This document shows positions 2,643-62,320 of a DNA stretch of 64,000 nucleotides, in pieces. The DNA lies in IMG/VR virus record IMGVR_UViG_3300021425_000014, positions 1 to 64,000 of that record. One strand, 5' to 3'. Origin of the DNA: a virus. The stretch's first letter is position 1; the number at the start of each line of letters is the position of its first letter. Below the pieces are notes generated by a model, which ran no database searches, was not told the DNA's origin, and saw only the letters and a list, made by a program, of their open reading frames with translations. The position numbers and the translations under genes were made by a program.

Positions 2643-2661
2643 TTAACCAAGGAGAACCAAA

Positions 2662-24633: not shown

Positions 24634-24675
24634 AGTATTGTCGGTAGAGAGTTTTGGACGACTTGGCCGACAAAT

Positions 24676-24748: not shown

Positions 24749-24760
24749 CTGGAGGATGAT

Positions 24761-25160: not shown

Positions 25161-25167
25161 AAGTTTT

Positions 25168-25239
25168 CCGCCTATAGTGTAGTGGACAGCACAAGAATCT
25201 TCTAAATTCTTCGGCCAGGTTCGAGTCCTGGTAGGCGGG
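25168..25239 (+). tRNA. tRNA-Arg(TCT)
   Basis: CCGCCTA/TAGGCGG acceptor stem, AGAAT-CTTCTAA-ATTCT anticodon arm, CCAGG-TTCGAGT-CCTGG. Confidence 0.9.
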
Positions 25240-25243
25240 CCTG

Positions 25244-25317
25244 TTCTGGTTGATCTAATTGGAGAAGATGCCCATCATAAAATAGGGGCAATGCGGGTTC
25301 GAGTCCCGTACCAGGAC
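25244..25317 (+). tRNA. tRNA-like element/pseudo-tRNA with aberrant anticodon arm
   Basis: Acceptor, D and T arms pair well; anticodon arm CCCAT-CATAAAA-TAGGG mispaired and lacks U33. Confidence 0.55.
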
Positions 25318-25476
25318 ATAATCGAGGAAATAAAATGCTGCAAGATGCTTTAATTTACTTACTAGGAAAAGATTTATTGGCGTTTACCGGACTAATGCTT
25401 TACACATTCTTCTTGTTTGGAATAGTAAATGCCGCATCTAGCTATTCGCAATATAGTGAATAAATTTGGTGCTACA

Positions 25477-26120: not shown

Positions 26121-26295
26121 AGAAGAAAATCGGCAACAGCACCTAGCTCGTTTTGTCCATAATACATTATTTTTAGATAAACTACACAAAGTCCCAACAG
26201 CCTTATCTTTGCCAATTTCCGTAGATGTACCCAATCAAAGTTTAGCGAGAACATACATCTTAAATCGTAAGCCAACCCAGATTGAGGGTTACTAA
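26113..26295 (+). CDS. Hypothetical protein
   Basis: GGAGG RBS. Confidence 0.5.
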   Translation: MTEEENRQQHLARFVHNTLFLDKLHKVPTALSLPISVDVPNQSLARTYILNRKPTQIEGY

Positions 26296-27332: not shown

Positions 27333-28126
27333 ATTTAAATGACATTTTTGCAGGGGTTAACAACTACGCCCCTGCAATTAAAAGAAAATTGCTTCCAGTT
27401 CTTATAGAGCAAATGGAGTTGGAAAGCAAGAAAACCTATCCACCAAAAGAAGAGGCGCAATTTAGAGCATCTGGCATAGGTGGATGTAAGCGAAAGATGA
27501 TGTATAAGTTGCTTGGATATGAAGAGCAGCTTGATCATATCAGCGTGTTTACTCTTGAGCAAGGAACACTGATTCACGAAATGATTCAAGGGTATTTGCA
27601 AAGGGCGGGCATTATTGAATCTCTTGAAGAGGAGCTAAAGATACTTCCTAATTTAAATGGACACTATGACGGCGTAGTAGTCCTAAACGGGGAAAGATAC
27701 CTTCTTGAGATTAAGACAATAAACGGCGAAGCATACGAAAGACTTTTAAAATACAACTCTGTATATAAAAAGTATATCCTTCAGGCACATTGCTATATGC
27801 ATGCACTTGGACTTGATAAAACATTATTCCTATTTGTTAATAAGAATCATATGCTATCAGATTCTTGCAAAGATGAAGTGCCTGGCGCAGATCCATTGTT
27901 TCACGAAGTTGAAGTCAGATTTGATCATAGCGTATGGAAAGAAGTTAAAGATAAGGTAAGTGAATTAACGAATGATTTTAAGAATGGCATTATGCCAGCA
28001 TTTAAGAGAGTTTCCGAATGCTCATATTGCAACTTCAAGACGCAGTGCGAATCAGATTGGAAAATAGAGAAAGAAAATAAGAAAAAAGCTAAAAAAATAA
28101 AAGCGTCAGAAGCTAAGAAAGATTAG
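27329..28126 (+). CDS. Cas4-like PD-(D/E)xK exonuclease (stand-alone)
   Basis: C..R, GT.IH, GHYDG...EIKT, Q...Y, C..C.....C. Confidence 0.85.
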   Translation: MNLNDIFAGVNNYAPAIKRKLLPVLIEQMELESKKTYPPKEEAQFRASGIGGCKRKMMYKLLGYEEQLDHISVFTLEQGTLIHEMIQGYLQRAGIIESLEEELKILPNLNGHYDGVVVLNGERYLLEIKTINGEAYERLLKYNSVYKKYILQAHCYMHALGLDKTLFLFVNKNHMLSDSCKDEVPGADPLFHEVEVRFDHSVWKEVKDKVSELTNDFKNGIMPAFKRVSECSYCNFKTQCESDWKIEKENKKKAKKIKASEAKKD

Positions 28127-34400: not shown

Positions 34401-35623
34401 TGAATTACGACAAAGACACAAAGGATTATCTTCTTCGCGCACTTATTACAAAAATGTGCGAGGAAAAAGAGTACATCGATCTTCGTTATGATAAAGACTT
34501 CTTCGAGGATCACTGGTTAATATTTAAAAAGATCAATGATCGCAAGAATGATATGCCTTCATTGACCTACATTAAAGAAACGTACAAATTTAAACCGCAC
34601 TCAACGGATTACACCATTACCGATCTAGTAGAGAAACTTAATCAGTTCTATTACTACGAAAAAACAAACATCGTGCTTAGAGACGTTATCACCGCTCGTA
34701 AAAATGGAACCGATACGAATGATGCTATTACTGCCCTAGACAATCTGAACAAAGAGTTCTCTAAGATTCGTAGTGCAATCACTAACACTCAAGTTGTTGA
34801 CATTGCAAATGAACCAGAAAAGGTTGCCGAAGAATACCGTAAGGTAAAAGAAAACCTAACACTTATTCCAACTGGACTTGGAAGGCTTGACGACATCTGC
34901 TGCCCAAGGCTTGGTAACTTCCTGTTACTATGCGCTGCAACTGGTGGCGGCAAGTCGCTTATTATGACTCATATGCAAAAAGCGGCGAACGAAAACAACA
35001 TTCCCTCTTTGTACATCTCTCTAGAAATGACTCTAGTGGAGCAAACAAACCGCTTATTGGCACTCAAGGGCATCAAATCGTTTACAGATCTGCACAATAA
35101 CAATGTAGACCCCAAAGAGTATCAAGACCTGGTTAAACAGCTAAATAGCTCAAATACTCATATTCTTACAAGGACAACGGAAACAAAGATCAATCTTCAA
35201 ACTATTGAGAAATATGTGCAAGAATTAAAGCCGCGCGTTGTTTTCCTAGATTATATGACACTGCTGCAAGATGCTGACTTCTCTTGGAATTCGGAAGTAT
35301 CAATCAGTGCAGAATTAAAGCGTATCGCGCTACAGAATAATCTACTGATGATCTCAGCAGTTCAAGCAGACTCAGCCTCTATGACGAGTGGCGAGGTTCC
35401 AGATCTTCATAATGTTCGCGGTAATAAATCGTTCTCTTTTGACACAGATATGTTCGTTGGCCTAGCTTCAGAACGCTACTTAACTGAGCCCGATAAGTTT
35501 AAGTTTAAGTTTGCTGTTCGTAAGAATCGCAATGGCATCCTTACCGAGTTTGCCTATCGCGTTAAGCCCGAAACTGGAATATTCGAAGACATTACCGATG
35601 ATGTTGCGAATGGTTTAGCATAA
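34400..35623 (+). CDS. dnaB: DnaB-like replicative helicase
   Basis: AATGGGKS, SLEM, FLDY, ELKRIA, KNRNG. Confidence 0.9.
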   Translation: MNYDKDTKDYLLRALITKMCEEKEYIDLRYDKDFFEDHWLIFKKINDRKNDMPSLTYIKETYKFKPHSTDYTITDLVEKLNQFYYYEKTNIVLRDVITARKNGTDTNDAITALDNLNKEFSKIRSAITNTQVVDIANEPEKVAEEYRKVKENLTLIPTGLGRLDDICCPRLGNFLLLCAATGGGKSLIMTHMQKAANENNIPSLYISLEMTLVEQTNRLLALKGIKSFTDLHNNNVDPKEYQDLVKQLNSSNTHILTRTTETKINLQTIEKYVQELKPRVVFLDYMTLLQDADFSWNSEVSISAELKRIALQNNLLMISAVQADSASMTSGEVPDLHNVRGNKSFSFDTDMFVGLASERYLTEPDKFKFKFAVRKNRNGILTEFAYRVKPETGIFEDITDDVANGLA

Positions 35624-36429
35624 TGTCAAATAATTTTCATATCAAACCAATAATCAAGCAAGTTGGCAACAAAAGCTGGCTCAAGGAAGATGTATGGAGA
35701 TTTTATCTAAGGTCTTCGGTTAATGCTGGGAAAAGCCTTAGATTCGTTGATCCCTTTTGCGGAAGCTTAGCGGTTCCATTTTTTATTATCCCAGATCGGG
35801 CTTGGGTTAACGATGCAAATCATTATATAATTAATTTATACAAACAACTTATTATTAACCCAACTATGCCACCACAAGAAAGAAGCAAGGAGCTATATCT
35901 ATCAAAGCGAAATGAGTTTAATAATCTAATTGAAAATGGCGTAACTGATGGTAGAGAATTAGCGGAATTATTTTACTACTTAAATAGATTTGGATATAAT
36001 GGGGTGATTAGATTCAATAAAAGTGGTAAATTTAATACACCATTTGGCATGTCGAAAATATATAATACAGATTTTGAGACTGAAGCTAGTGTTCTAAAAG
36101 ATTGGAAGATAACAAATCTAGACTTCAGGGAAGTGATTCATAATTGCGATGAATCCGATTTTATATTTGCAGATCCACCATACGATGAGCAATTTAATCA
36201 CTATGTAAAAGCTTCATTTCCTTGGGAGAATCAAGTAGACTTAGCACAATTACTAGCAAAGCACCCTGGGCCAGTAGTGACAACAAATAATCCTAGTGAT
36301 AGAATCGTTGAATTATATACTTCACTTGGCTTCTCAAGAATTAACAGGCGTAGGTTTAATCATTTAAAAAATGCTAAACTTCAAACTGGATTGGTATTCA
36401 AGGAAGTTATTTTTACGAGGAACATCTAA
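35623..36429 (+). CDS. dam: Dam-family DNA adenine methyltransferase
   Basis: GNK, DPFCGS, YYLNRFGYNG..RFN..G.FNTPFG, DPPY; target sequence inferred, not shown. Confidence 0.85.
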   Translation: MSNNFHIKPIIKQVGNKSWLKEDVWRFYLRSSVNAGKSLRFVDPFCGSLAVPFFIIPDRAWVNDANHYIINLYKQLIINPTMPPQERSKELYLSKRNEFNNLIENGVTDGRELAELFYYLNRFGYNGVIRFNKSGKFNTPFGMSKIYNTDFETEASVLKDWKITNLDFREVIHNCDESDFIFADPPYDEQFNHYVKASFPWENQVDLAQLLAKHPGPVVTTNNPSDRIVELYTSLGFSRINRRRFNHLKNAKLQTGLVFKEVIFTRNI

Positions 36430-49318: not shown

Positions 49319-49731
49319 ATATCATCAAAAGAAATGCACAAACTAGTCAGTCAAAAAATTTGGGAGGCGGATTAAGTTTCGCCTCCTTATATACATGTAT
49401 ATATAAAAACTTTTTGGCCCCATGGGGGGGATCTCCAAACTAAAAAAAGCAGCTAATATATGTTTTGAATTTTAATTCCTTAATTTTTTAACAGAAAATT
49501 TTTTCTCGCGCGAGCGAGCCCTCATTGTATTGCATCGTATTGAATTGTATTGTATTGCTTGGTATTGTATTAAGTTGTATTGTATTGTATTGCCGACACC
49601 CCAGCGCCCGAACCCCAATACAATGTAATGCAATCAAACGCGGAACCCCAATACAATGCAATGTGATAAGCTAGATCACATTCCTTATACATGCGAGAAA
49701 AAAGTTTTTTTAGTTTTTTTCAAAAAAGGGC

Positions 49732-49760
49732 TTGCAATCGATCGCGCATTGCCCTATGAT
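49732..49760 (+). promoter_or_regulatory. Early promoter (identical to 50935-50963)
   Basis: TTGCAA-17-TATGAT. Confidence 0.8.
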
Positions 49761-49799
49761 GTTTTTGTTCCCCACACAACAGAGGAGATTAAAACCATC

Positions 49800-50618
49800 A
49801 TGGCTTGCACACTCATTAAGCCGGAAGCCCCCAAGTATCGCACTCCCAAGCGCGATGAATACAAGTCTATGGCGTTCTTTCATGCTCTTATGGATGACGC
49901 CAAGCGGGCATTAGAGCGGGCCCCGATGCCCGAGATCGGGAAAAATGGCAACAGCAAGATCGGCGCGCGTGGCGTCAAGGCATACACTCTGGTATATTCC
50001 GGCGTGGCGTGGCACGATTGCACGCCTACGATCGGCTGTAATTCCTGCTATGCGATGGGCTTTAGATACATGCATGCCATCGCACACCGCAAGGGTAAAT
50101 CGTGGCTTTATTCCTACATGGCGCGGGAAGCGATCGAACCATTAGAATTTATCATCCGCCATGAGATCATGGAAGCGCTGATCAAGTCTAAGCGATTGGG
50201 CTTAACTCTGGCCGTCAGGATTCACGAAGCGGGCGATTTTATATCACCTGAACACGTCGCGATGTGGGATCGCATTGCAAAAGAATTTAAAACGGCTGTT
50301 TTTTGGTGCTACACTCGCTCAGATCTGGCAAGCGATGCCATGCGCGATGCCTTAGTATCTTTCGCGGAAAATGAAAATGTGCATTGTCGCGCATCATTTG
50401 ATCCTGTTAATGATGGGGAAGAAATCAAGCTTACCCGTAATGGTTTACCCGGCGCGATCATCGTTGGCACTAAGCATAAGGGCAAGCGCAAGGGCCCCGA
50501 ACACGTTAAGGGGGCTGTTAATTGCCCCGAACAGCTTACAAATGGTGAGATCGGCTGTTCCGATTGTGGGCTATGCTGGAATAAATCCAAGCCTGTGATC
50601 CGATTCTGGAAGCACTAG
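49800..50618 (+). CDS. GP88-family (radical-SAM-like) phage protein
   Basis: GNSKIG, C....GC..CYA, RIHEAGDF, FWCYTRS, CP.Q...C..CGLCW. Confidence 0.8.
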   Translation: MACTLIKPEAPKYRTPKRDEYKSMAFFHALMDDAKRALERAPMPEIGKNGNSKIGARGVKAYTLVYSGVAWHDCTPTIGCNSCYAMGFRYMHAIAHRKGKSWLYSYMAREAIEPLEFIIRHEIMEALIKSKRLGLTLAVRIHEAGDFISPEHVAMWDRIAKEFKTAVFWCYTRSDLASDAMRDALVSFAENENVHCRASFDPVNDGEEIKLTRNGLPGAIIVGTKHKGKRKGPEHVKGAVNCPEQLTNGEIGCSDCGLCWNKSKPVIRFWKH

Positions 50619-50934
50619 CTTGTATTGTATTGCCCCCCGCAAGGGGGGCTTTTTTCTGCGTGCCCATATATTGCATTGTATTGTATTGCCGTTCGCTCTC
50701 GCCTGAGATTGTATTGCATTGTATTGTATTGGCAGGCCCCCCGGCTTCGCCGGGCTCCGAGCCCCGATCGCGGCACAATACAATATCATACAGTATAAAT
50801 AAAATCCCCAATACAATACAATTACATACATCGTTACACCAGCCGCTGGCCCCAATACAATGCAATCTAACATAGGGCCAGATCTGAGCCAGATCGAGCG
50901 AAAAAAGAAAATCAAAAAAAGATCGTTTTGGGGC

Positions 50935-50963
50935 TTGCAATCGATCGCGCATTGCCCTATGAT
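50935..50963 (+). promoter_or_regulatory. Early promoter
   Basis: TTGCAA-17-TATGAT. Confidence 0.8.
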
Positions 50964-51023
50964 GGGTTTGTTAAGGCAACGGGGGGCACGGAAAACCCCC
51001 CCTGAATAAGGAGAGTGGCCGCC

Positions 51024-52013
51024 ATGGCACACGAAATGAAAAACAACGATCACATGGTTTCGGGTATGGGCATCAAGCCCTGGCACGGTCTGGGAACCGT
51101 CGTAGACGGGCTGTTGACGGCCCGCGAGACTCTGGAAGCCGCCAGGCTTGATTGGGAAGTTATCAAACACCCGATCACGCTGCAAGGTTCCGATCAAATC
51201 GTACCCGATTCGTTCGCAACCATCCGCACAGATGATCGCTCTGTGCTTGGCATCGTCGGCAATCAATACACGATTCTTCAGAATGTCGATGCTTTCAACT
51301 TTTTCGATAGCATCGCAGAACGCGGCGATGCGATCTATGAAACAGCGGGATCGCTGTTTGGTGGGCGTAAAATCTACGTCACCGCAAAAATCCCAGGCTT
51401 GATCCGCGTTGGTGATGCGGGCAACGAAGATGTAAGCGAAAAATACGTATTACTCACAAACAGCCATGACGGCACTGGGGCTGTTACAGTCAAGCTGATC
51501 ACAACCAGGGTGGTCTGCAACAACACGTTAACGGCAGCATTACGCGAAGGCGGGCGCGGTGTGTCGATCCGGCACTCCCAACTAATGCATGATAAATTGG
51601 CGCTTGCATCGAACATGCTAGGGATCGCTAATCAGCGCTTCCAGCAAATGGAAGAAACATTTAACCAGTTTGCCAACGTGCAACTAAAAGAAATCGAGGT
51701 ACGCGATTTCTTGCGGAAATGTTTTGAGCTTCCATCTGATGCAGATAAAGCAACCGATAAAGACAAACGCGCCATTGCCCAGGTAATGGAACTGCATGAG
51801 TCTGGCCGTGGCTCAGAGTTTACCCGTGGCACTCTCTGGGGGGCATTTAATGCCGTCACAGAGTGGACAAACCATTACCGCACATATAAAGAGCAGGCAA
51901 ACGGTAACACGCGGGCAGATAACAAGCTTGGATCTATCTTTTACGGTCAATCTGCTACACTCACCGATCGAGCGTATGACCTTGCGCGGGATCTTGTGTT
52001 AGCTAAGCGCTAA
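51024..52013 (+). CDS. DUF932-family phage/plasmid protein
   Basis: PWHGLG, LG.VG..Y..LQN, YETAGSL.GG, NSHDG, RVVCNNTL, GTLWGAFNAVTE. Confidence 0.9.
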   Translation: MAHEMKNNDHMVSGMGIKPWHGLGTVVDGLLTARETLEAARLDWEVIKHPITLQGSDQIVPDSFATIRTDDRSVLGIVGNQYTILQNVDAFNFFDSIAERGDAIYETAGSLFGGRKIYVTAKIPGLIRVGDAGNEDVSEKYVLLTNSHDGTGAVTVKLITTRVVCNNTLTAALREGGRGVSIRHSQLMHDKLALASNMLGIANQRFQQMEETFNQFANVQLKEIEVRDFLRKCFELPSDADKATDKDKRAIAQVMELHESGRGSEFTRGTLWGAFNAVTEWTNHYRTYKEQANGNTRADNKLGSIFYGQSATLTDRAYDLARDLVLAKR

Positions 52014-52288
52014 CGCGGGGCAATGGGGGCCCCAAATCGGGGCCCCTTACCCGACACGTGGTATACTTACCATACCAGTTATACGATCGGCCCTTATGGG
52101 GCTTGTGTGAGGGCTTATGCACCTTTTATTTTTACCGCTTGTTTTAGTTTTTTGTTTCGCCGTTTTACTTATTCAATTTATAGGCATGGCGATCATTCAC
52201 GGGATCTCTGGCCGTCGCAGATGGTATAGTTAATCTGTCGGAATCATCGGGGCCCCAAATCGGGGCCCCACACAGAAAGGATCATAAA

Positions 52289-52672
52289 ATGACAACTTCT
52301 CTAGACATGTTCAAGGTTCGCTGGGATAAGCAAGATACAGAATGGAACAGCAGCAACATAAACCCTATGGCTTGCCATGATTTCTTCGATAAATTCATTA
52401 ATGATGTGGAGTTTCAAACTAGCATTAACTTGAATAACAACATTCAAATTTACAAAGATTATTACGTAAGGGGCAAATATAACTTTGTAAAAGTATTTCA
52501 ATCGTTAATGCGGATCCTGAATACGTACCGCAAAAAAACGGGGGACACGACGATCACAACAATTGATGAAATTAAATTTATTGCCGATATGGTAGAAAAT
52601 AACATATGGAACAAACACCTAGTACCGTTAACCATTCAACGGGAATACATTAAGTCTATCTACTCCGAATAA
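52289..52672 (+). CDS. Hypothetical early protein (AT-rich)
   Basis: AAGGA RBS; flanked by ggggccccaaatcggggcccc hairpins. Confidence 0.65.
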   Translation: MTTSLDMFKVRWDKQDTEWNSSNINPMACHDFFDKFINDVEFQTSINLNNNIQIYKDYYVRGKYNFVKVFQSLMRILNTYRKKTGDTTITTIDEIKFIADMVENNIWNKHLVPLTIQREYIKSIYSE

Positions 52673-53711
52673 TCACAGAGCGCAGAGCAGAGAAACAAGC
52701 AAAGGGGCCCCCCAAAATCGGGGGCCCTTACTGCATGAATAATATATATATTATAGATAATACCATAAGCTTATAAGGTATAAAGAATAACACGAAGGTA
52801 CAAACACTCAAGGAAAGAAAATCAAGCCCCTTCTAGGGCATTCTAGGCCCCTCTATTGAGGCCCTTACCGATCCAGTTTTCAAGCCCCCATGAAAAACCC
52901 TGTATAAACCTTTTTATTTGTCTGCTAGGGGCCCTTGAATCAATACAAAATACCCCCTTTGGGGCATCCCCAGCCTAAAAATAGCACTATAAGCCCCTTT
53001 CGGGCAGATTCTTTAAAAAATCCAGCGCCGCATAAGAGGCTGTACCATATTAAATTGTATTGTTAAGCTCTATGTTTAGTTCTTTTACTCCTCTATATAT
53101 AGTATGATATTGTATTGATACTATATATATATTATAAGTTATTATATTGTATTGGGGTTATTAGGCCCCGTTTTGTGTTGTATTGTATTGTAGACTCAGT
53201 TCGACACCTTTAGTACTTTCGCACAGCCGAGTGGAATACAATTCAATACTCTACAATGCTTATTTTAGTTCAAAGATATATATATATTATATTGTATTGT
53301 ATGGGCCCCCGTTTTCTGTGGGGTAGTTTAGACTAAAAGTTTAGGCCAACTTTTCGGGGCCCCTTACTTTGTAGTTATTAAACATGTATATATATAATAA
53401 ATAAAAACTTCGAGCCCTATATATAGGATCCCCCACTTTCTTTTAACAGCTTTATATATATAATACAATACAATACATTAGGTGCCCCGCTTTTTCACCC
53501 AACCGCGAGCGCCCTGTATTGTATCGCATCACATTGTATTACATTGTATTGTATTGCCTTGTATTGTATTGTATGACATTGTATTGTATTGGTGATGGGT
53601 GGCGGTGTGTCCTCAATACAATATAATGCAATGCGAGAGCGAGGGGCCCCGGCAATACAATGCAATCTAATGCGAGCCTGATCTGGCCTGATCTGACACA
53701 AAAGATTTTTC

Positions 53712-53740
53712 TTGCAATCTTTCGCCAGATATGTTGTAAT
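53712..53740 (+). promoter_or_regulatory. Early promoter
   Basis: TTGCAA-17-TGTAAT; GATC at 53680 and 53690. Confidence 0.7.
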
Positions 53741-53787
53741 TAGATTGTCGCACAAACGAGATGCCCAAACGGGCGGGAGACAAGACC

Positions 53788-54219
53788 TTGCATACAGAAT
53801 TGACCAAAGACCAAATCGCTTTCTTGCGTAAGGCACGCCACATTTACTTCAGCGCACGTCGCAATGATGACGGTGTGTTTGTTGGCCACATCGAAGCAAT
53901 CCAAGAAGATAAGGATAACCATTCCGTGGCGCGGATGGAAATCACAACACGCGCCATGATTAGTGGTGGGAACCGTGCTAACTGTTCGATCGCAATCGCT
54001 GGATTCTGTGAAGTCTGGCAAACTGTGTTAGCTTTCATCAAGTCTGGCGATTCGCTTGGCCTACGCTTTGAGGCCAACGGATTCCGCCCGTTGGATGAAA
54101 AGTACAATGACGTTAATCTTGATGTCTTGTATGTCAGTGTAGAACGGAATAATAAATTCTATAAATTCTTACTGGATGTTCACTTGACCAAGGAGGGTCA
54201 TTACCGGATCATCCAGTAA
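53788..54219 (+). CDS. Hypothetical early protein
   Basis: TTG start after hairpin-GGGAG; terminator 54225-54247. Confidence 0.7.
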   Translation: MHTELTKDQIAFLRKARHIYFSARRNDDGVFVGHIEAIQEDKDNHSVARMEITTRAMISGGNRANCSIAIAGFCEVWQTVLAFIKSGDSLGLRFEANGFRPLDEKYNDVNLDVLYVSVERNNKFYKFLLDVHLTKEGHYRIIQ

Positions 54220-54489
54220 ACCACGGGGCCCCGCAAGGGGCCCTTTTAACTAAAGTTAATTATATTGTATTGTATTGCATTAGTTCTTTTAATTGTATTG
54301 TATTGGCGTACTGGCCTCCGAGAAATCGGGGGCCTTTACGTTTCAATACAATTCAATACTATATATTAAAAACATTGTATTGTATTGTATGTGTAATTGG
54401 TTGGCCCCGAAATCGCGGCCCTCAACCTACCAATACAATACTATAATATATATACCAAATATTAAATAAAAATAGTTTCAAAAAAGGGC

Positions 54490-54518
54490 TTGCAATGATT
54501 CTCAGGATATGCTTTAAT
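54490..54518 (+). promoter_or_regulatory. Early promoter
   Basis: TTGCAA-17-TTTAAT. Confidence 0.65.
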
Positions 54519-54569
54519 GGTATTGTCAGGTTATGGCCCCACCTTTGAGCGGGCCCGGAGATCGGAACC

Positions 54570-54761
54570 TTGCCTAACACAAAACTTATCAGCAAGCACG
54601 GAACCAAAGATCGCGTTTTCTGCCCCCGGTGTTTGAGAGAGTTGCAGAGTGATATCAAAAGCGATATAAGTTTTTGGTTTCATTGGGCAGATAATTATCA
54701 CGCGGCTGGACACCAAACGGAAGAGCCATGCCAGCGGTATGCAGATACTTGCGGAGATTAA
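54570..54761 (+). CDS. Small Cys-containing early protein
   Basis: CPRC...C...C; terminator 54766-54789. Confidence 0.55.
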   Translation: MPNTKLISKHGTKDRVFCPRCLRELQSDIKSDISFWFHWADNYHAAGHQTEEPCQRYADTCGD

Positions 54762-55000
54762 GCCCTGCCCCCTTCGGGGGGCTTTTTTATTATGCCTATA
54801 TATATTGGATTGTATTGTATTGGCGATCGCCATCCGCCAAATCGCGAACACTCACTCTTTGAATACAATATAATATATTAATCTTATTGCATTGTATTGT
54901 ATTAAGGCACCCCGATTCGCGGGCCCTTAAAACTTACCAATACAATACACTATAATAATAAAACCAAAGATCTGGCTCAGATCAACATGACCTTGATCAC

Positions 55001-55029
55001 TTGCGCCATGCCCCCCATCGTGCTACACT
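55001..55029 (+). promoter_or_regulatory. Early promoter
   Basis: TTGCGC-17-TACACT with extended -10 TG. Confidence 0.65.
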
Positions 55030-55079
55030 AAGGTTGTTCGGTTAAGCGATGGCGCTGGACGCGCCGGGAGGTAAACGCA

Positions 55080-55271
55080 ATGGGTGATTTAAACTGGCCT
55101 TTCTGGCACACGCAAGAAGAGTGTGACGAGATGAACAAAACGCTTGTGGATGATATGAAAAACAACATGAGCAAGATTCTGTGGAACAACGATCATGATA
55201 CAGTTCAAGAAATTCTTTCGAGATGGGAAGAAAACACAGGCATCGATCTTCGCCTTGAGCGCGATTGGTAA
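55080..55271 (+). CDS. Hypothetical early protein
   Basis: Leader hairpin-GGGAGG. Confidence 0.7.
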   Translation: MGDLNWPFWHTQEECDEMNKTLVDDMKNNMSKILWNNDHDTVQEILSRWEENTGIDLRLERDW

Positions 55272-55286
55272 AAAGGGAGGTAAGCA

Positions 55287-55571
55287 ATGCAGACCACGCA
55301 AGTTTATAACAACGTCATCGAGGCTGTTGTGTGCAACAGCATGGCGTATGACTTTCAATTACCCATCGGCAAGTTCGATGGCGAAAGTTTACTCAAAAAG
55401 ATCTGGTTCAAGATTCAAAAGAAAGGGAATAGTAAAAGCCCTGACATCCAAATGCAGCGCGCCATGTGGCTAAGCCCTTGCAGGTTCGATGGAAGCGCTT
55501 TAAGGTCAATGGATATGAAAGGGCAATGGTGGGACACAGGCATGGAGCTTGTAGCCAAGCGAGACATTTAA
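55287..55571 (+). CDS. Hypothetical early protein
   Basis: GGGAGG RBS; terminator ~55584-55604. Confidence 0.65.
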   Translation: MQTTQVYNNVIEAVVCNSMAYDFQLPIGKFDGESLLKKIWFKIQKKGNSKSPDIQMQRAMWLSPCRFDGSALRSMDMKGQWWDTGMELVAKRDI

Positions 55572-55795
55572 TAGTATTGTATTGCCCCCCGAGAGGGGGG
55601 CTTTCTCGTATGCCCCTGTGTATTGTATTGTATGGGCGGATACCCCTGCTTAATCAAAATTCAAAAAAACGCGCCGCCGCATATTCGATACAATTCAATT
55701 CAATGCGATGAATGTATGGTATTGTATTGTATAAAAACGCGGGCACTCACTCTTTGCCAATACAATACAAACAGATCTGACTCTGATCTAAACAC

Positions 55796-55824
55796 TTGCG
55801 TCATTAATATATATCTGCTAGAAT
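55796..55824 (+). promoter_or_regulatory. Early promoter
   Basis: TTGCGT-17-TAGAAT. Confidence 0.7.
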
Positions 55825-55860
55825 TAAAGAGTAAAGGCAAGGGCTCAAGCGAGCCGGAAA

Positions 55861-56100
55861 GTGAAGGTTATGATCCCTTTTGCTGAGATTGAATTGTGGG
55901 ATGACTACGGCCACAAGAAGTGGATTGAATATGACAATATTGATGATGTCATATGGGGCCATAAATGGGATGACTCGGACGATCATGAGTGTGAGAGATC
56001 GGGTAACGTAGAAATCCACAAGCTGGGGCCCAAGGATCATTATTATTGTATTATCATGGTTAAGAAATACGGGATGCCCAAACTCGAACTCCAACTCTAA
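55861..56100 (+). CDS. Hypothetical early protein (acidic)
   Basis: Cassette context. Confidence 0.6.
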   Translation: MKVMIPFAEIELWDDYGHKKWIEYDNIDDVIWGHKWDDSDDHECERSGNVEIHKLGPKDHYYCIIMVKKYGMPKLELQL

Positions 56101-56337
56101 CTTAACAGCTTTATATTGTATTGCCCCTCTGGCTCTGGCTGGCGGGGCACTTTTGCGCTCAGGCCCGCCTCGCTGTATTGCATTGTATTGTATGCCCCCG
56201 TCGTATTGCATTGTATTGTATTGGTGGCCATCGACCCACGGCAATACAATTCAATTCAATGTAAAGGTTGTATGGTATTGTATTGTATTGGTCGGATCCG
56301 GGGCCCGATCTGGCCTGAAAAATGTTTTCAAAAACTA

Positions 56338-56367
56338 TTGACTTGGCCATGGACGGCATGTTACTCT
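56338..56367 (+). promoter_or_regulatory. Early promoter
   Basis: TTGACT-18-TACTCT. Confidence 0.6.
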
Positions 56368-56413
56368 TGAGGAGTCAACACAAGCGATGGCGCTGACGCG
56401 CCGGGAGGCTCAA

Positions 56414-56782
56414 ATGCTCAAGAACATGATCGCCACGGATGCCCTGGGTGGGTTGCAGGTCAAGGTGTACCGCAACCTTCACAAGAAGTGCCTCAGCGTG
56501 TGGCATGCGGGCTATGTCGTGGCCCATGTTGACTCCATCACGCTGGATGGCGTGCTTTTCAAGGTGAACGAAGCTGGACGCCAACGCGTGTTGCGTGAGA
56601 AGAAAAAGAACGTCCACGCTTTCGTGACGGGCACAGTCACAGGCGTTAACGCGCCCCCACGGGGGGCTGTTCCCGTGTCCTACAACCCTTATAAGGGGGC
56701 TTCTTTCACCCTGCCTGATGGCCAGGCCATTATGGCGGCCGGAACGGTCACGGTGACGACCAGGGGGGCCTTCGTAGACTGA
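56414..56782 (+). CDS. Conserved phage early protein (VYRNLHK...GRQRVLREKKKNVHAFV family)
   Basis: Motif recognisable as a widespread phage hypothetical family; GC-rich. Confidence 0.75.
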   Translation: MLKNMIATDALGGLQVKVYRNLHKKCLSVWHAGYVVAHVDSITLDGVLFKVNEAGRQRVLREKKKNVHAFVTGTVTGVNAPPRGAVPVSYNPYKGASFTLPDGQAIMAAGTVTVTTRGAFVD

Positions 56783-56940
56783 GGGCCCCGGCTCTCTTTC
56801 CCCATAGGGATCAATACAATGCAATGCAGTCCAATACAATGCAATTCAATGCAACGGTTATATTGTATTGTATTGTATGGCCCCCATCCGGGGGGGCTGA
56901 TCTGGGGCTGATCTGGGCTGAAAAATCTTTTTTGAAATCG

Positions 56941-56969
56941 TTGACATCTCGCTTGAAACTTGCTACTAT
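56941..56969 (+). promoter_or_regulatory. Early promoter
   Basis: TTGACA-17-TACTAT. Confidence 0.8.
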
Positions 56970-57010
56970 TAAAGAGTAGTCGTTATGGCGCTGAGCGCCG
57001 GGAGGTCAAA

Positions 57011-57244
57011 GTGAAGGGCATCGACATCATTCGGGAATCGGACAACGGCGGAGAAATCATCGGATTTCGCATCAGCGCCAAGCACGGCGGATTCGGGTTT
57101 GACGTACCGCTTGTAGACTTAGTCAACGCTGAGGTGTTCACGGAAGAGAAGCGCGAGGCGCTGCTCAAGCGATACCAGGCCTACTTGGCCGATATCGTCA
57201 AAACCTGGGAGCAGCCGGGCACGGCTAATCGCTGGGATGTTTAG
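57011..57244 (+). CDS. Hypothetical early protein (DLVN family)
   Basis: GTG start after hairpin-GGGAGG; terminator 57250-57274. Confidence 0.7.
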   Translation: MKGIDIIRESDNGGEIIGFRISAKHGGFGFDVPLVDLVNAEVFTEEKREALLKRYQAYLADIVKTWEQPGTANRWDV

Positions 57245-57400
57245 CCCAGGGCCCCCCGAAAGGGGGGCTTTTTTCGTGTGGCTTATCAATACAATACAAT
57301 TCAATACAACGCGGGGGGAATATATTGCATTGTATTGTATGGGCGGGATCGCCGTGCGCCATTCGGCCTCATCGGGCCAGCAATGCGGTGCGCAACGCAG

Positions 57401-57505
57401 CATCGCATTTAAGGGCCCTGTGAGGGCCATGAAGGGGCTTATAGGTATCCGGGAGGGTGATTGTACCCTGAACGCCATCAGGGGCCTTTACGGGCCTTGT
57501 GGTGG
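57401..57505 (+). other. Phased element A, core AGGGTGATTGTACCCT (57454)
   Basis: Near-ungapped similarity to elements B-D. Confidence 0.75.
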
Positions 57506-57530
57506 CTTGATCTGGAATAAAAAGTTTTTC

Positions 57531-57559
57531 TTGACATCCAATGATGGGGTTGATATGAT
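57531..57559 (+). promoter_or_regulatory. Early promoter
   Basis: TTGACA-17-TATGAT. Confidence 0.85.
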
Positions 57560-57606
57560 GAAAGAGTCAGGCAAACGAGATGGCGCTGACGCGCCGGGAG
57601 GTCGAA

Positions 57607-57768
57607 ATGATGGTAAGCTTTCAGGAAGAAGAAAAGGGATTCTTGGTAGCGGTGACTGAAGACGATTTCGTCTTCATTCCCGTTCAGAACGGGAACCGCG
57701 TAGCCGCCTTCGAAGAGGCGATCGAGCAGCTTAACGAATGGTTCTATGCATCACTTAAATACAAGTGA
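57607..57768 (+). CDS. Small acidic early protein
   Basis: Hairpin-GGGAGG; terminator 57774-57796. Confidence 0.65.
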   Translation: MMVSFQEEEKGFLVAVTEDDFVFIPVQNGNRVAAFEEAIEQLNEWFYASLKYK

Positions 57769-57968
57769 TGCGAGGCCCCCGAAAGGGGGCTTTTTTCGTG
57801 CCAATCATCAATACAATACAATTCTATACAATCACTGCATCGCATTGTATTGTATGGGGAAGAATCGGGGGGCCATACCTACTTCCCTTTGAATCACCAA
57901 TACAATACAGTTTAATATATGACCTGATCTGGCCTCAAAATATTTTTAAAATAGTTTCTGAAAAGGGG

Positions 57969-57997
57969 TTTACATTCCCAGGTGAAACGGGTATGAT
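57969..57997 (+). promoter_or_regulatory. Early promoter
   Basis: TTTACA-17-TATGAT. Confidence 0.75.
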
Positions 57998-58047
57998 ATT
58001 AATGTAAGGGTTAAGCGACACCCCTGAGTCGCGGAGAACAGACCACC

Positions 58048-58284
58048 ATGGCTATCTTCAATGTTGTAATGGTTAAGGATCCGATGATGGCCCCCGTGCT
58101 CGTTGAGCAGCACAAAGTCGAGAGCCTGAAAGAGGCTCGTAAGATCCTCAGCCAGTGGGCTGAAGATGGGGACAAAATAGTAGCCCTCAAGAAGGCGCCG
58201 CTTCCCTCAGGGCGCCACGTGACGCCACTGGTTATACAGACGATGGAAGAGGATTCCGATATCTTCGGACAATACATAGATTAA
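58048..58284 (+). CDS. Hypothetical early protein
   Basis: Hairpin-GGAG; terminator 58290-58315. Confidence 0.7.
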   Translation: MAIFNVVMVKDPMMAPVLVEQHKVESLKEARKILSQWAEDGDKIVALKKAPLPSGRHVTPLVIQTMEEDSDIFGQYID

Positions 58285-58518
58285 GCGAGGGGCCCCGCGA
58301 GGGGCCCTTTTTTTTATGCCCCTGTGTATATTGCATTGTATTGCCAGGGCGATCGCCCATCGGGACTTATCAATACAATTCAATGCAACCAATGTATTGC
58401 ATTGTATTGGACGGGGGCCCCGGCGAGCTTGCGCCAAATCGCGCGCCCTTACTCTTTGCAATACAATACAATCTAATTCATACCTGATCTGACCTTGATC
58501 TGACACAAGTTGATTTAT

Positions 58519-58547
58519 TTGACATCCTTCCCGATAGTTGTTATTAT
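58519..58547 (+). promoter_or_regulatory. Early promoter
   Basis: TTGACA-17-TATTAT. Confidence 0.85.
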
Positions 58548-58611
58548 AAAAGAGTCAAGGCAAGCGGGCCCGACGCCCGCCAGATGAACCCCAGGGGTTC
58601 GGGAGGTAAAC

Positions 58612-58833
58612 ATGACCATCACCATTGCCGTTGTTATCGCTGTGCTTACATTTGCGCTGGGCATGTCGCTCGGCGTGAGCCTTCAGCAATCATACGGTAA
58701 TCGTACCGAAAGAATTTTATATGAGGCGTACCGCCAGGCGCGGGATGAGGCCCTTCACCTTGAAAGGAAAATCGCCACGGGCGAAAGTTTTAGGAGAAAC
58801 GTCATCCGCTCAATAAAGAAAATCTCAGACTAA
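58612..58833 (+). CDS. Small membrane-anchored early protein
   Basis: N-terminal TM; terminator 58838-58864. Confidence 0.7.
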   Translation: MTITIAVVIAVLTFALGMSLGVSLQQSYGNRTERILYEAYRQARDEALHLERKIATGESFRRNVIRSIKKISD

Positions 58834-58934
58834 CACAGGGCCCCCGAAAGGGGGCTCTTTTTTTATGCCTGTTAATATATTGCATTGCATTGTATTGTTA
58901 GCCCCCCTTTTCTTCGTGCGTTCGAAACATCCGA

Positions 58935-59055
58935 TAAGCCCCACAGCGTAGCACCCTTTTAAAGCGTGCTGTGAGCCCGTTAAACGCGTTTCAGGGGGGT
59001 GGGTAGGGTGATTGTACCTTAGAACAATTTAAACGCCTTTAAAGCCCGTATGTTT
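58935..59055 (+). other. Phased element B, core AGGGTGATTGTACCTT (59005)
   Basis: As element A. Confidence 0.7.
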
Positions 59056-59221
59056 AATCAATGCGATCGCCCATAGAAGATCAATACAATTCAATTCAAT
59101 GCAGCCGTGGTATCGCATTGTATTGTATGGACACAGGGCAGGGGCAAAAGCGGGGCCCGTCACTTTTTGCAATACAATATAATTATATATAAAAGGGTTG
59201 ATCTGGGTTGATCTGGTTTAG

Positions 59222-59250
59222 TTGACATCATAAGCCTGGTTTGATATGAT
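59222..59250 (+). promoter_or_regulatory. Early promoter
   Basis: TTGACA-17-TATGAT. Confidence 0.85.
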
Positions 59251-59290
59251 TAAAGAGTAAAGGTTATGGCCTGATGGCCGGGAGGTTCTA

Positions 59291-59545
59291 ATGCGCGAGT
59301 ACGTGGGCAATGTCGAGGATCTGTGGGAAAACCCTTTCGATGGCTATTGCCGTGCGCTTGACCGTTATGACCGCTTTGCGGTCTATGAACGGGACACGGA
59401 CGGGTATGGATTCCCGATCTATCATTGCTGGTCAAGCAAGGAGCAGGAAACCATATGGTTCACAAGAGAGGACGCCGCCATGCGCTGGTGTCAAAACATG
59501 ATGGTTGCCCTACGACTTGAGGGGCATTATATCTGGATGGTTTAA
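59291..59545 (+). CDS. Hypothetical early protein
   Basis: Hairpin-GGGAGG; terminator 59548-59575. Confidence 0.7.
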   Translation: MREYVGNVEDLWENPFDGYCRALDRYDRFAVYERDTDGYGFPIYHCWSSKEQETIWFTREDAAMRWCQNMMVALRLEGHYIWMV

Positions 59546-59683
59546 CAGGGGGCCCCGCAAGGGGCCTCTTTTTTTATTGCCATAAGTCCATACAATACAA
59601 TTCAATAACTTGATTAGATTGCATTGCATTGTATTGCCCCGATACCGGGCTGATCTGGTCTGATTTGACAAGAAAAGTTTTTC

Positions 59684-59712
59684 TTGACATCCCGCTTGCG
59701 ATTTGCTATTAT
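59684..59712 (+). promoter_or_regulatory. Early promoter
   Basis: TTGACA-17-TATTAT. Confidence 0.85.
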
Positions 59713-59760
59713 TAAATTAGTCAAGCAAACGAGATGGCGCTGAGCGCCGGGAGGTTGAAA

Positions 59761-60084
59761 ATGGCAAAGCAACTTTGGTACGACATCAACAAGTTTCACG
59801 AAGGAAAGAATGTAGCCGATTGCCTTATCGGCACTGCAAGCCGCGAGGATCTGCACCATTATTTCTTGGTGCTGAATCGCTACAATGACACCAAAACGGG
59901 ATACCTCCCTGGGGCATATCTTGAAAACCCAGAAAAAGATTATGTACTTGTGTCGGGAACGGAAACTACTGAAGAAATCGAAAGTTTCATGAAAAAAATT
60001 GTCCAGTGGTCACTGGAGGATAAGGATTTTTCGGAAGAATTCAACGAAAGAACAAGACAGCTTGAAAAGGAATTCCAAGCTTAA
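59761..60084 (+). CDS. Hypothetical early protein
   Basis: Hairpin-GGGAGG; terminator 60090-60112. Confidence 0.7.
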   Translation: MAKQLWYDINKFHEGKNVADCLIGTASREDLHHYFLVLNRYNDTKTGYLPGAYLENPEKDYVLVSGTETTEEIESFMKKIVQWSLEDKDFSEEFNERTRQLEKEFQA

Positions 60085-60268
60085 AGCCAAGCCCCCGCAA
60101 GGGGGCTTTTTTCTTGGCTTACCTTCCATACAATACAATGCAATTTAATGATTGTATGGGATTGTATTGTATTGATTAGTGGCAGGGCGCTAAAGGGCGA
60201 TCGCCCATCGCGGCACAGCAATACAATGCAATGAGATACATCACCTGATCTGGCTTGATCTTAAAATG

Positions 60269-60297
60269 TTGACATCAGGTGTGCCAGATGTTATTAT
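60269..60297 (+). promoter_or_regulatory. Early promoter
   Basis: TTGACA-17-TATTAT. Confidence 0.85.
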
Positions 60298-60356
60298 TAA
60301 ATAGTCAAGGCGACGGGGCGCTGCCCCAAGATGGCCCCAGTGGCCGGGAGGTTCTA

Positions 60357-60563
60357 ATGTTGGTTGACGCGATCAAGCTCAAGGGCAAAGGTTCTGACGC
60401 GGCTGATCCCGCTTATGGGATCGCTTTCACCGATAAGGATGGGGTCATCCTCGACATCACCGTCGAGGATCTGGTGAACGCTGCGGCGTTGCACAACCCA
60501 TACCTTGACAAGGTGTCGTACCAAAAACATATCGAGCGTTGCATCGAAAGGATTTTCGAATAA
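60357..60563 (+). CDS. Hypothetical early protein (DLVN family)
   Basis: Hairpin-GGGAGG; terminator 60569-60591. Confidence 0.7.
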   Translation: MLVDAIKLKGKGSDAADPAYGIAFTDKDGVILDITVEDLVNAAALHNPYLDKVSYQKHIERCIERIFE

Positions 60564-60701
60564 AGCCAAGCCCCCGCAAGGGGGCTTTTTTCTTGGCACA
60601 TGTTCAATACAATACAATTCAATGCGTTTAAGTTATTACATTGCATTGTATTGGCGATAAACCGTGCCCCCGGCGATCGCCCGTGGCGTCGTACACCACG
60701 A

Positions 60702-60808
60702 CATCGCGTTTAAGGGGCCTGTGAGGGCCGTAAAGGGGCCTCTCGGTGTCTGGCAGGGTGATTGTACCCTAGCAGGGTTCAAGGGCCTTTACGGGGCTCC
60801 TGTGGCCT
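60702..60808 (+). other. Phased element C, core AGGGTGATTGTACCCT (60755)
   Basis: As element A. Confidence 0.75.
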
Positions 60809-60842
60809 GATCTGATGGTTGATCTGGAGTGAAAGATTTTTG

Positions 60843-60871
60843 TTGACATCCTGTGACCGGCTTGCTATGAT
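60843..60871 (+). promoter_or_regulatory. Early promoter
   Basis: TTGACA-17-TATGAT. Confidence 0.85.
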
Positions 60872-60935
60872 GAAATAGTCAAGGCGACGGGGCCCGATGC
60901 CCCGGTTATGGCCCCCAGGGGGCCGGGAGGTAAAC

Positions 60936-61190
60936 ATGACCATGATCGTTAACAAAGAGTACACCGTAAAGCTGGCTATAAACGGTAGCCAAGATCCGGT
61001 GGATCCAGTGGGAACCTTGAGGTTCCACGGTTTCACCGTTATCGGTGAAAACGGCGAAGAATTCTTCGTCGACTTTCAGGACTTGGCCAACGGTCGCCAG
61101 GTCGATGAAAAGTTCGACGTGACGATCTTGTGGCGGCTCAGTGAGTTCTACAAGTCACAGTTTCTCAAGGTTATCGGCGAGAAACTGTAA
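60936..61190 (+). CDS. Hypothetical early protein (DLAN variant)
   Basis: Hairpin-GGGAGG; terminator 61196-61222. Confidence 0.7.
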   Translation: MTMIVNKEYTVKLAINGSQDPVDPVGTLRFHGFTVIGENGEEFFVDFQDLANGRQVDEKFDVTILWRLSEFYKSQFLKVIGEKL

Positions 61191-61494
61191 CCCAAGGGCC
61201 CCCCGCAAGGGGGGCTTTTTTTATTGCCCCCTATTATATGGCATTGTATTGTATTGCCCCCGGCATATAGCCCCTCCCCATCAATGCCCCTGTTAATCAG
61301 AAAAATAAATGTTTCACGCGCCGTATATTATAAAAATAATCGTTCGGTGGCCCCGAATGGCGGCCAATACAATTCAACACAATTCAATTCAATTCTAAAA
61401 CATTTTATTGCATTGTATTGAAAAAAGTTTCTGGGGGTGCGCAAAAAGCGGGAAGATTAATTCCCCACATTTTTCACTCAACCCTTAAAACTTA

Positions 61495-61610
61495 ACACCC
61501 TTTTCTTTGCGTACAGAATGGCGTTAAACACGTTTCAGATACCACGGCAGGGTGATTGTACCTTGAACGATTTTCAGGCACCTTTACGGGGCTTGCGTAG
61601 GCTGTTTTAA
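61495..61610 (+). other. Phased element D, core AGGGTGATTGTACCTT (61549)
   Basis: As element A. Confidence 0.7.
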
Positions 61611-61879
61611 ATTTAACTCACATCAGGCTTGTTCAACTTGACGTTGAATTGACACAGCCTGAAAAATCCCATACAATACAATTCAACACATGGGGCCATG
61701 ATCATGAGTTTTCCCCATGTATAGGATCCCCAACTTTCGACCAATAGCTTTAAAAACCCTTTCCCGCTTTCGATCGCCAGCCCCGGCGCACAGGGCGAAA
61801 AAAGTCGATTTTTGCTGTATTGTATTGTATTGTATTGTTAACCTAACCTTACCCTCATCTTAACCTGTTCTTAACCTTC

Positions 61880-62320
61880 GATGTCAACTAAGAGATCTTT
61901 AAGAGATCGTTAAATTTAGGTTAAATTTTGGTGTAAAATATTTTACCATATTTCGTCGAAAATGTCAATTAAAAGATCTTTAAAAGATCTTAAAATTTAG
62001 GTTAAATTTTGCTACCACGAAAATCCAGATCTGTCAACTAAATTTAGGTTAAAGATCTTTAAATTATGGTTAAATTTTACGATCACAGATCTCGTCGAAA
62101 GTCAATTAAATTTGAGTTAAAGATCTTTAAGTTTAGGTTAAGTTTTACGATCAGATTTTTCGTCGAAAGTCAATTAAAAATAAGTTAAAGATCTTAAAGG
62201 TTTGGTTAAATTTTACAGGCACATTTTTCACCGAAAGTCAATTAAATTCAGGTTAAAGATCTTTAAGATTTGATTAAACTTTTTTCGTCGAAAAAAATCA
62301 GATGAATCGGATTTTGTCAA
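61880..62320. repeat. Six ~69-bp AT-rich iterons (gtcaaYtaa...aagatcttt...ggttaaatttt...cgaaa)
   Basis: Units start near 61883, 61962, 62032, 62101, 62169, 62237. Confidence 0.85.

Follow-up and report, generated by a model that had tools for sequence, protein, structure and literature searches.

What is the nature of a phage region in which small, mutually unrelated genes are set one after another between spacers of related design? The question is raised by a locus in the IMG/VR virus record IMGVR_UViG_3300021425_000014, a sequence of 95,012 bp whose first 64 kb are referred to here as the window. The locus is a cassette island at 49524–61838 (+ strand), delimited at both borders by forward (ATTGT)n arrays (49524–49592 and 61816–61838). 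We consider it probable, with some reserve, that this is a hyperplastic region of accessory, and probably early, genes in a lytic myovirus, comparable to the promoter-early stem-loop (PeSL) cassettes of T4-type phages, in which the spacers provide both expression signals and homology for recombination.

Architecture of the cassette island

The island comprises 15 promoter-bearing units with 17–18 open reading frames (ORFs), all on the + strand; it represents 13% of the genome, its own coding share being 48%. A preliminary description of the DNA had counted about 14 cassettes: the array itself stands, while the count has to be corrected, one of the 15 units being bicistronic (unit 5) and another probably a two-gene operon (unit 2). 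The genes carried by the units (the cargo) were said to be unrelated and variable in GC content, and indeed no significant similarity was found between any two cargo proteins, with GC contents spanning 0.35–0.59. Its origin was not a simple tandem duplication of entire cassettes. A short motif noticed by eye in units 8, 14 and 15 was considered as a sign of paralogy and rejected, as it is not significant. Atlas searches on the cargo proteins gave no informative match.

The signals that frame these genes, namely hairpin terminators, inverted pentamer tracts and GATCTG boxes, are present as initially described, and motif counts over the whole record show them to be concentrated in the island. 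The forward pentamer form ATTG[TC]ATTG has 71 of its 74 genome matches between 49.5 and 61.9 kb, the reverse form 40 of 42 in the island, and CCGGGAGG all nine; GATCTG has 23 of its 44 copies there, its complement five of 41. Every pentamer 9-mer of the island lies outside the cargo ORFs (111/111), and elsewhere in the genome the single pentamer shows neither avoidance nor enrichment. Perfect terminators on the + strand, consisting of a GC hairpin and a T-run, number 15 in the genome, 12 of them in the island and three in the other 82 kb, each of the 12 having a GNRA or UUCG tetraloop. Terminator-like sites amount to 56, against 18.1 expected from shuffled sequences.

Nine predicted promoters between 56941 and 60843 match the sigma70 consensus at 10–11 of 12 positions with a 17-bp spacer, and eight of them have an extended −10 TG. 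The near-consensus promoters with 17-bp spacing that had been attributed to the units are thus found here, whereas the left third of the island has weaker −35 hexamers (TTGCAA, TTGCGT/TTGCGC). An UP-like A/T-rich stretch precedes the −35 in most cases. The leader hairpin fused to GGGAGG was also correctly noted: in at least ten units the 5′ untranslated region contains a hairpin whose 3′ arm runs straight into this ribosome site, and five different stem sequences occur with the pairing kept, i.e. with covariation. With this equipment, host sigma70 RNA polymerase would read each of some 15 self-contained cassettes from a start composed of UP-like A/T stretch, −35, 17-bp spacer and extended −10; the conserved leader would place a hairpin just 5′ of the strong GGGAGG site, and an intrinsic terminator with a GNRA or UUCG tetraloop would end each transcript. 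Having its own promoter and terminator, each small gene would therefore be expressed and insulated alone. The host-type promoters suggest that the cassette genes are probably early.

The spacers measure 215–460 bp, with the terminator 130–360 bp upstream of the −35, and run from the stop codon to the terminator and then to one to three dyads of forward and reverse pentamer tracts, whose arms can pair as 12–17-bp hairpins. The single intergenic layout previously proposed for all of them has to be abandoned, since at least two orders follow the terminator: six spacers have a reverse tract and then a forward one, and six others have the forward tract first. The reverse-then-forward tracts make up a 62-nt module, present in nine copies of 63–100% identity. 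Usually a GC-rich insert of one of three kinds comes next: a hairpin whose loop is of the AAATCG type, a short GGCGATCGCC-containing sub-element, or an element of about 110 bp that we call X. This X element breaks the uniformity further, being an extra component of four spacers, in two of which (57245 and 60564) it takes the place of the last reverse tract. Its first copy lies at 57395–57510 and the others at 58946–59061, 60696–60811 and 61490–61605, with a fifth outside the window (genome 68053–68168); the core, AGGGTGATTGTAC, has 13 invariant nt within an imperfect 16-bp palindrome that holds the pentamer, and a conserved CCTTTA follows about 20 nt downstream. No conserved RNA fold was found for X, and Rfam gave no family match.

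Towards the promoter, the GATC boxes are arranged as direct repeats 10–12 bp apart, the second of the pair being sometimes degenerate. An example is the pair at 56899–56915 (+ strand), and others lie at 50881/50892, 53680/53690, 54969/54980, 55774/55785, 58486/58497, 59200/59210, 60247/60257 and 60809/60821; single boxes are seen at 56307, 57509, 57926 and 59652. Their distances to the −35 cluster at 11–12, 22 (seven promoters), 31–34 and 42–43 bp, i.e. in helical phase. In five of eight spacers the last reverse tract lies 14–15 bp 5′ of the GATCTG boxes, the two being joined as a conserved block.

Since the pentamer tracts sit between terminator and promoter, their role is likelier to be exerted on DNA than on RNA, and terminators that work should keep transcription out of the region that holds the dyads. 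The position, the orientation grammar and the phasing of tracts and GATC pairs point to protein binding: the dyads would most likely be binding-site arrays for some DNA-binding protein, and the GATCTG direct repeats most likely a second site, recognised by a transcription factor or acting as a methylation-sensitive switch. Such a switch is possible because the phage has a D12 Dam-class methylase (35623–36429, in the replication block) and a second DNA adenine methylase, of the N6_N4 type, beside the rhamnose genes (genome 64700–65818, minus strand); GATC is not avoided in the genome, with 455 occurrences against 349 expected from base composition. We propose, tentatively and as a doubtful extension, that pentamer dyads and helically phased GATCTG pairs together form a dedicated control layer with no PeSL counterpart, in which a phage or host protein would coat the arrays, insulating or silencing the cassettes, and the GATC pairs would tie the promoters to the Dam-class methylation of the phage, closing early promoters on replicated (hemimethylated) genomes.

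Mosaic spacers, relatives and competing explanations

Sequence identity between spacers is patchy. The longest exact repeat (37 nt) extends from the stop codon through the terminator in units 13 and 14 (60082/60561), another of 34 nt crosses the promoters of units 1 and 2 (49728/50931), and exact repeats of 19–23 nt cross leaders. Overall, the spacers share exact patches of 18–37 nt and are 60–90% similar over 40–90 nt; because the repeats cover positions without obvious signal function, they speak for common descent or gene conversion and not for convergence. Within one spacer, terminator, promoter and leader usually have their closest matches in three different spacers, and X is combined with either of the layouts that follow the terminator, a reticulate pattern which fits exchange among spacers. 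Since such patches and similar stretches are common to the spacers, these may serve recombination: they would offer homology to the RecA-type recombination of the phage itself, by which whole cassettes would be replaced, lost or gained between related phages with expression left intact. The genome encodes a RecA (19858–20907, minus strand), an Mre11/SbcD-like phosphoesterase (26295–27332, + strand) and a PD-(D/E)XK nuclease (27329–28126, + strand), whose predicted functions make up a full homologous-recombination set. The tyrosine recombinase profile PF00589, which includes the integron integrase IntI, has no match in the 95-kb record, although all control genomes match; the record, estimated to be 94% complete, likewise has no serine recombinase or resolvase, no match to PF01797 (Y1/RAYT transposase) and no GIY-YIG nuclease, and its single HNH lies at 22.6 kb, 27 kb from the island.

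Relatives were compared at the protein level, through clusters of metagenome proteins, and proteins were assigned to one relative contig by matching contig sizes in bp. At least nine related metagenome contigs are visible in the protein collection, and conservation of the cassettes among them is uneven. The cargo of units 2b (the second ORF of unit 2), 3, 5b (the second of unit 5), 6, 7, 11 and 12 is shared at 86–98% identity, the DUF932 protein of unit 2 at 98% and that of unit 12 at 90–98% in nine relatives, the contigs with close cargo being of 13.4, 11.9, 8.8, 5.3 kb and other sizes. In the same set (contigs of 11.9, 8.8, 5.3 and 4.5 kb) the cargo of unit 8 is only 66–76% identical, and that of unit 10 has just two homologues, at 60–64%; the one at 64% is on a contig size (2,177 bp) on which a unit 7 protein at 89% is found too. 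The proteins of units 5a, 9, 13, 14 and 15 are without cluster mates at 90%, and an exhaustive profile search with the unit 13 protein over 1.84 billion representatives returned only itself. A relative contig of 35,536 bp has a homologue of unit 12 (90%) together with the downstream RmlD, RmlC and 100-aa genes; since the left neighbour and the downstream genes are there and the profile search returned no homologue, unit 13 is probably absent or replaced in this relative. Cassette-wise variation among close relatives is thus supported by these protein comparisons. The modular shuffling platform of the preliminary description is partly supported by this variation, the mosaic spacers and the RecA-type genes, whereas the "gene capture" ascribed to it was overstated, as no integrase, resolvase, Y1 or GIY-YIG enzyme is found.

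Searches for further occurrences of the island were less productive. IMG/VR protein searches with the flank protein, the DUF932 protein (alone and as a profile), the 84-aa cargo protein and RmlD revealed no close relative, and the terminase relatives in that database, at 66–85% identity, are on contigs of 5–6 kb only. A scan of IMG/VR with the GATC/promoter pattern gave chance singletons only, and two pentamer-dyad patterns, run against IMG/VR and 185,579 species genomes, gave only single or palindromic (both-strand) matches. In metagenome contigs these patterns occur in at least 119 stretches, mostly as single matches among the matches listed, none of which has other scaffold motifs at the locus; the two richest loci examined resemble eukaryotic microsatellites.

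Several points weigh against the reading of the island as an exchangeable early-gene region with shared control. The exact homology patches are short, at most 37 nt. Gene callers may have overlooked short ORFs in the relatives and so inflated the number of singletons, and the uneven identity could come from fast-evolving genes rather than from replacement. Near-consensus sigma70 promoters are present in the replication module too, and "early" is for this reason no distinctive property of the island. For the GATC phasing, the nominal Rayleigh p of about 1e-5 is overstated because homologous copies were counted as independent, and the genome offers no candidate binder of the pentamers among HU/IHF, RHH or sigma70 region 2 domains.

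Could the island be a purely regulatory regulon? On this account the spacer design is kept by selection and one regulator, acting on pentamers and/or GATC boxes, switches all units; the repeats have no role in mobility, and relatives differ by ordinary divergence and illegitimate recombination. The GATC boxes in fixed order and in phase with the −35 agree with such a regulon, as do the conserved block that joins the last reverse tract to them at 14–15 bp in five of eight spacers, the exclusion of pentamer tracts from ORFs, the covarying leader hairpin and the lack of a dedicated recombinase. However, the spacers are mosaic, with exact patches that extend over non-signal positions, the homologue-less cassette of unit 13 lies between conserved neighbours, and there is a precedent in T4-type phages for the recombination of such repeats (PMC2839356). 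We therefore regard regulation by itself as a rather unlikely explanation, the regulatory and recombinational readings being compatible and not exclusive.

The lack of transposases and site-specific recombinases bears on the two remaining possibilities. Were the modules of about 70 bp (forward tract, GC hairpin, reverse tract) and X selfish repeats, similar to miniature inverted-repeat transposable elements (MITEs) or to the repetitive extragenic palindromes (REPs) and bacterial interspersed mosaic elements (BIMEs), they would have colonised the spacers with no function for the phage. Their build resembles terminal inverted repeats, they occur in one to three copies per spacer (in tandem within 54220–54950), their sub-elements combine independently and one X copy lies outside the island; but transposases of the Y1, tyrosine and serine classes are not found in the genome, and the dyads are met only as singletons in IMG/VR and the 185,579 species genomes and mostly as single matches in the 119 or more metagenome stretches. 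Moreover, the tracts have a fixed location between the terminator and the GATC boxes and are almost wanting in the other ~80 kb of the genome in spite of the intergenic DNA available there, which makes selfish colonisation improbable. An integron-like system, with the dyads as attC-type sites of a site-specific recombinase, would account for an imperfect dyad after each cassette, foldable as a 12–17-bp hairpin, and for the unrelated cargo; nevertheless we judge it very improbable, as the genome, 94% complete, yielded neither a tyrosine nor a serine recombinase, each cassette comes with its own promoter, and the dyads differ in number and order from spacer to spacer.

Individual cassettes and genomic surroundings

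All units are on the + strand. Unit 1 (49732–50655) has its promoter at 49732–49760 (TTGCAA-17-TATGAT), an ORF of 272 aa (49800–50618) belonging to Pfam GP88, and a terminator at 50632–50655. The promoter of unit 2 (50935–52727) lies at 50935–50963 and is identical to that of unit 1 over 34 nt; the first ORF (51024–52013, 329 aa) is a DUF932/TIGR03299 protein and the second, 2b (52289–52672, 127 aa), is without a promoter of its own, with identical 21-nt copies of a GC hairpin at 52026 and 52249. The literature searched for DUF932 offered no useful clue to function, and the AlphaFold model of the protein has a pLDDT of 48. An ORF-free, AT-rich stretch of 1.0 kb follows (52673–53711), with pentamer tracts that are scattered at first and dense at 53515–53591, and with the GATCTG pair at 53680/53690; TATATA runs were also noted in this stretch, as were several GC hairpins that lack a T-run, and some of its pentamer tracts are degenerate. 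It may represent decayed cassettes or a regulatory or small-RNA region.

Unit 3 (53712–54247; promoter 53712–53740, terminator 54225–54247) has a leader hairpin with GGGAGA and an ORF at 53788–54219 that encodes 143 aa in all relatives: the ATG at 53761 is part of the leader, and the true start is the TTG at 53788, nine codons later in all nine relatives. In unit 4 (54490–54788; promoter 54490–54518, terminator 54767–54788) the ORF of 63 aa (54570–54761, TTG start) is doubtful and has no entry in the protein collection. The bicistronic unit 5 (55001–55604) combines a weak promoter at about 55001–55029, a leader hairpin with GGGAGG and a terminator at 55584–55604 with ORFs 5a (55080–55271, 63 aa, a singleton) and 5b (55287–55571, 94 aa). 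Unit 6 (55796–56152) has the promoter TTGCGT-17-TAGAAT (55796–55824), an ORF of 76 aa (55870–56100) and a weak terminator-like hairpin at about 56124–56152. The promoter of unit 7 (56338–56789) at 56338–56367 has an 18-bp spacer and is followed by a leader hairpin with GGGAGG, an ORF of 122 aa (56414–56782; Pfam Phage_L5_gp82, GC 0.59) and a hairpin at 56765–56789. Homologues of this cargo, 50% identical, are present in SPO1-like Bacillus phages, and one occurs in Myxococcus phage Mx1.

Unit 8 (56941–57274; promoter 56941–56969, terminator 57249–57274) has a leader hairpin and an ORF of 77 aa with a GTG start (57011–57244), and unit 9 (57531–57796; promoter 57531–57559, terminator 57774–57796) a leader hairpin and a singleton ORF of 53 aa (57607–57768). 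Unit 10 (57969–58315) consists of the promoter at 57969–57997, an ORF of 78 aa (58048–58284) and the terminator at 58289–58315. Two leader hairpins are found in unit 11 (58519–58864; promoter 58519–58547, terminator 58837–58864), upstream of an ORF of 73 aa (58612–58833) whose product has a hydrophobic N-terminal stretch that looks like a single membrane helix; the ribosome site and first codons of units 11 and 15 are identical over 20 nt. Unit 12 (59222–59577; promoter 59222–59250, terminator 59547–59577) has a leader hairpin and an ORF of 84 aa (59291–59545), unit 13 (59684–60112; promoter 59684–59712, terminator 60089–60112) a leader hairpin and an ORF of 107 aa with a GC content of 0.42 (59761–60084). 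Two leader hairpins and a singleton ORF characterise both unit 14 (60269–60591; promoter 60269–60297, ORF 60357–60563 of 68 aa, terminator 60568–60591) and unit 15 (60843–61222; promoter 60843–60871, ORF 60936–61190 of 84 aa, terminator 61194–61222). An end spacer (61223–61838) closes the array with pentamer tracts, an X element (core 61551) and the last (ATTGT)4 array; it has no ORF, and no convincing one lies behind its promoter-like site at 61649–61677.

The record is linear, without end repeats, and its ends interrupt the structural module, which continues across both. A contractile-tailed phage is indicated by the genes encoded, as these include the tail sheath, major head protein, portal and large terminase and, for replication and metabolism, a DnaE-type polymerase, DnaB helicase, primase, ribonucleotide reductase, ThyX and dUTPase; PhoH and ClpP are also encoded. 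The best identity of the polymerase to a GenBank phage is 29–31%, the terminase is less than 28% identical to every GenBank phage, and the sole match in megablast and blastn searches against GenBank phages is a 60-nt coding stretch shared by the gp82-like gene and mycobacteriophages. The island closes a rightward block of replication and nucleotide metabolism (22–49 kb), and on its 3′ side a 68-bp tandem repeat array and then a leftward block of rhamnose and methylase genes are found.

The repeat array, directly 3′ of the island (61881–62283), has about 3.7 tandem units of 68 bp with degenerate flanking copies; each unit contains a AAGATCTT-type palindrome (14 in the genome, 5.6-fold above expectation) and TTAA-N7-TTAA-like boxes, and a near-consensus promoter on the minus strand (61968–61940) points at the island. 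The array is a candidate replication origin or packaging/terminus site. Elsewhere in the window, a perfect 12/12 promoter with a 16-bp spacer stands directly 5′ of three tRNA genes (24606–25318; Met-CAT, Arg-TCT and an odd call of Phe with anticodon AAA), and positions 1–3000 have 57–62% GC, against 36–45% across most of the genome, and encode an 876-aa protein of PHROG 2295 (function unknown) next to tail-fibre genes. A cyanobacterial host was considered from the HIP1 word GCGATCGC and rejected, the independent copies being too few: the word occurs seven times in the genome, 10-fold above the base-composition expectation, but five of the seven copies (54822, 58347, 59062, 60197 and 60673) sit in one repeated spacer sub-element and thus provide no evidence for such a host.

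Known cassette systems and biological meaning

The closest known counterparts are the PeSL cassettes in the hyperplastic regions of the T4-type phages RB49 and phi1 (Arbiol et al. 2010, PMC2839356), which are compact elements of about 100 bp, in five subclasses, with the stem-loop inside, overlapping or beside the promoter, and whose recombination gives deletions, insertions and minicircles (PMC2839356). The comparison with PeSL, already drawn in the preliminary description, is well founded: autonomous promoter–leader–ORF–terminator units with a homologous scaffold carry unrelated cargo of mixed composition, and the spacers share with PeSL an AT-rich stretch, a strong sigma70-type promoter, a GGGG...CCCC stem-loop terminator and a Shine-Dalgarno (SD) sequence with start codon. 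Both are located between small ORFan genes, in a region that is variable in the case of PeSL and probably so here, and both are without a dedicated recombinase, the proposed substrate being that of the homologous recombination of the phage. However, the phage described here is not of the T4 type, as seen from its DnaE-type polymerase and distant terminase, and its spacers of 215–460 bp, with terminator and promoter far apart, are 2–4 times longer than the ~100 bp of PeSL. Resemblance to one PeSL subclass is limited to the leader hairpin, which lies downstream of the −10; neither the pentamer dyads nor the phased, paired GATCTG boxes have a PeSL counterpart, in line with the earlier statement that the spacers have more layers, and the covarying leader hairpin that abuts the SD sequence and the optional 110-bp X element are further differences. 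Recombination and minicircles are on record for PeSL; for the present array, the mosaic spacers are indirect evidence of exchange.

Other systems are more distant. The host-takeover module of Bacillus phage SPO1 and its relatives, a cluster of about 26 small early genes according to the available part of its description (PMC6873191), is similar in that a large number of small genes, their functions unknown, follow strong host-type promoters; in SPO1 it is located in a terminal repeat, and that part of the description (PMC6873191) mentions no pentamer/GATC scaffold. A further likeness is that the unit 7 cargo, of the L5 gp82 family, has a homologue inside the annotated terminal redundancy of Bacillus phage phiNIT1. 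Takeover genes of SPO1 are mostly in short operons, in contrast to the one gene per unit found here. In enterobacteria, BIME/REP sequences form extragenic mosaics in which short inverted repeats alternate in orientation, with other motifs between them, and which are located 3′ of transcription units; REPs are GC-rich palindromes of 35–40 bp that are distributed genome-wide and linked to RAYT transposases. The arrays of this phage, on the contrary, are AT-rich, have a 5-bp unit, are restricted to one 12-kb island and are not accompanied by a RAYT protein. Integron cassettes are promoterless and depend on a common promoter, unlike the present ones with a promoter and a terminator each. In halovirus HF2, intergenic repeat classes of 58 and 29 bp carry promoters (PMC8707807), so that in both virus genomes repeated intergenic sequences hold the promoters of downstream genes; HF2 is, however, an archaeal virus with archaeal promoters, and the accessible part of its description includes no terminator, leader or pentamer layers.

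Clearly, cassette arrays as a kind are already known; the novelty lies in the non-T4 lineage, in the length and multi-layer build of the spacer, and in its pentamer dyads and phased GATC pairs. Should proteins bind to the pentamer arrays and GATC pairs, these would constitute a defined system for the timing and insulation of an early-gene block and a source of portable, insulated expression parts. It is in arrays of self-expressed small genes that phages store and exchange their genes for host takeover and counter-defence, and the cargo genes of the island, several of them ORFans and one unique to this genome, are candidates for takeover or anti-defence functions. The presence of a PeSL design in a non-T4 myovirus lineage means, therefore, that this design is either old or has arisen repeatedly.

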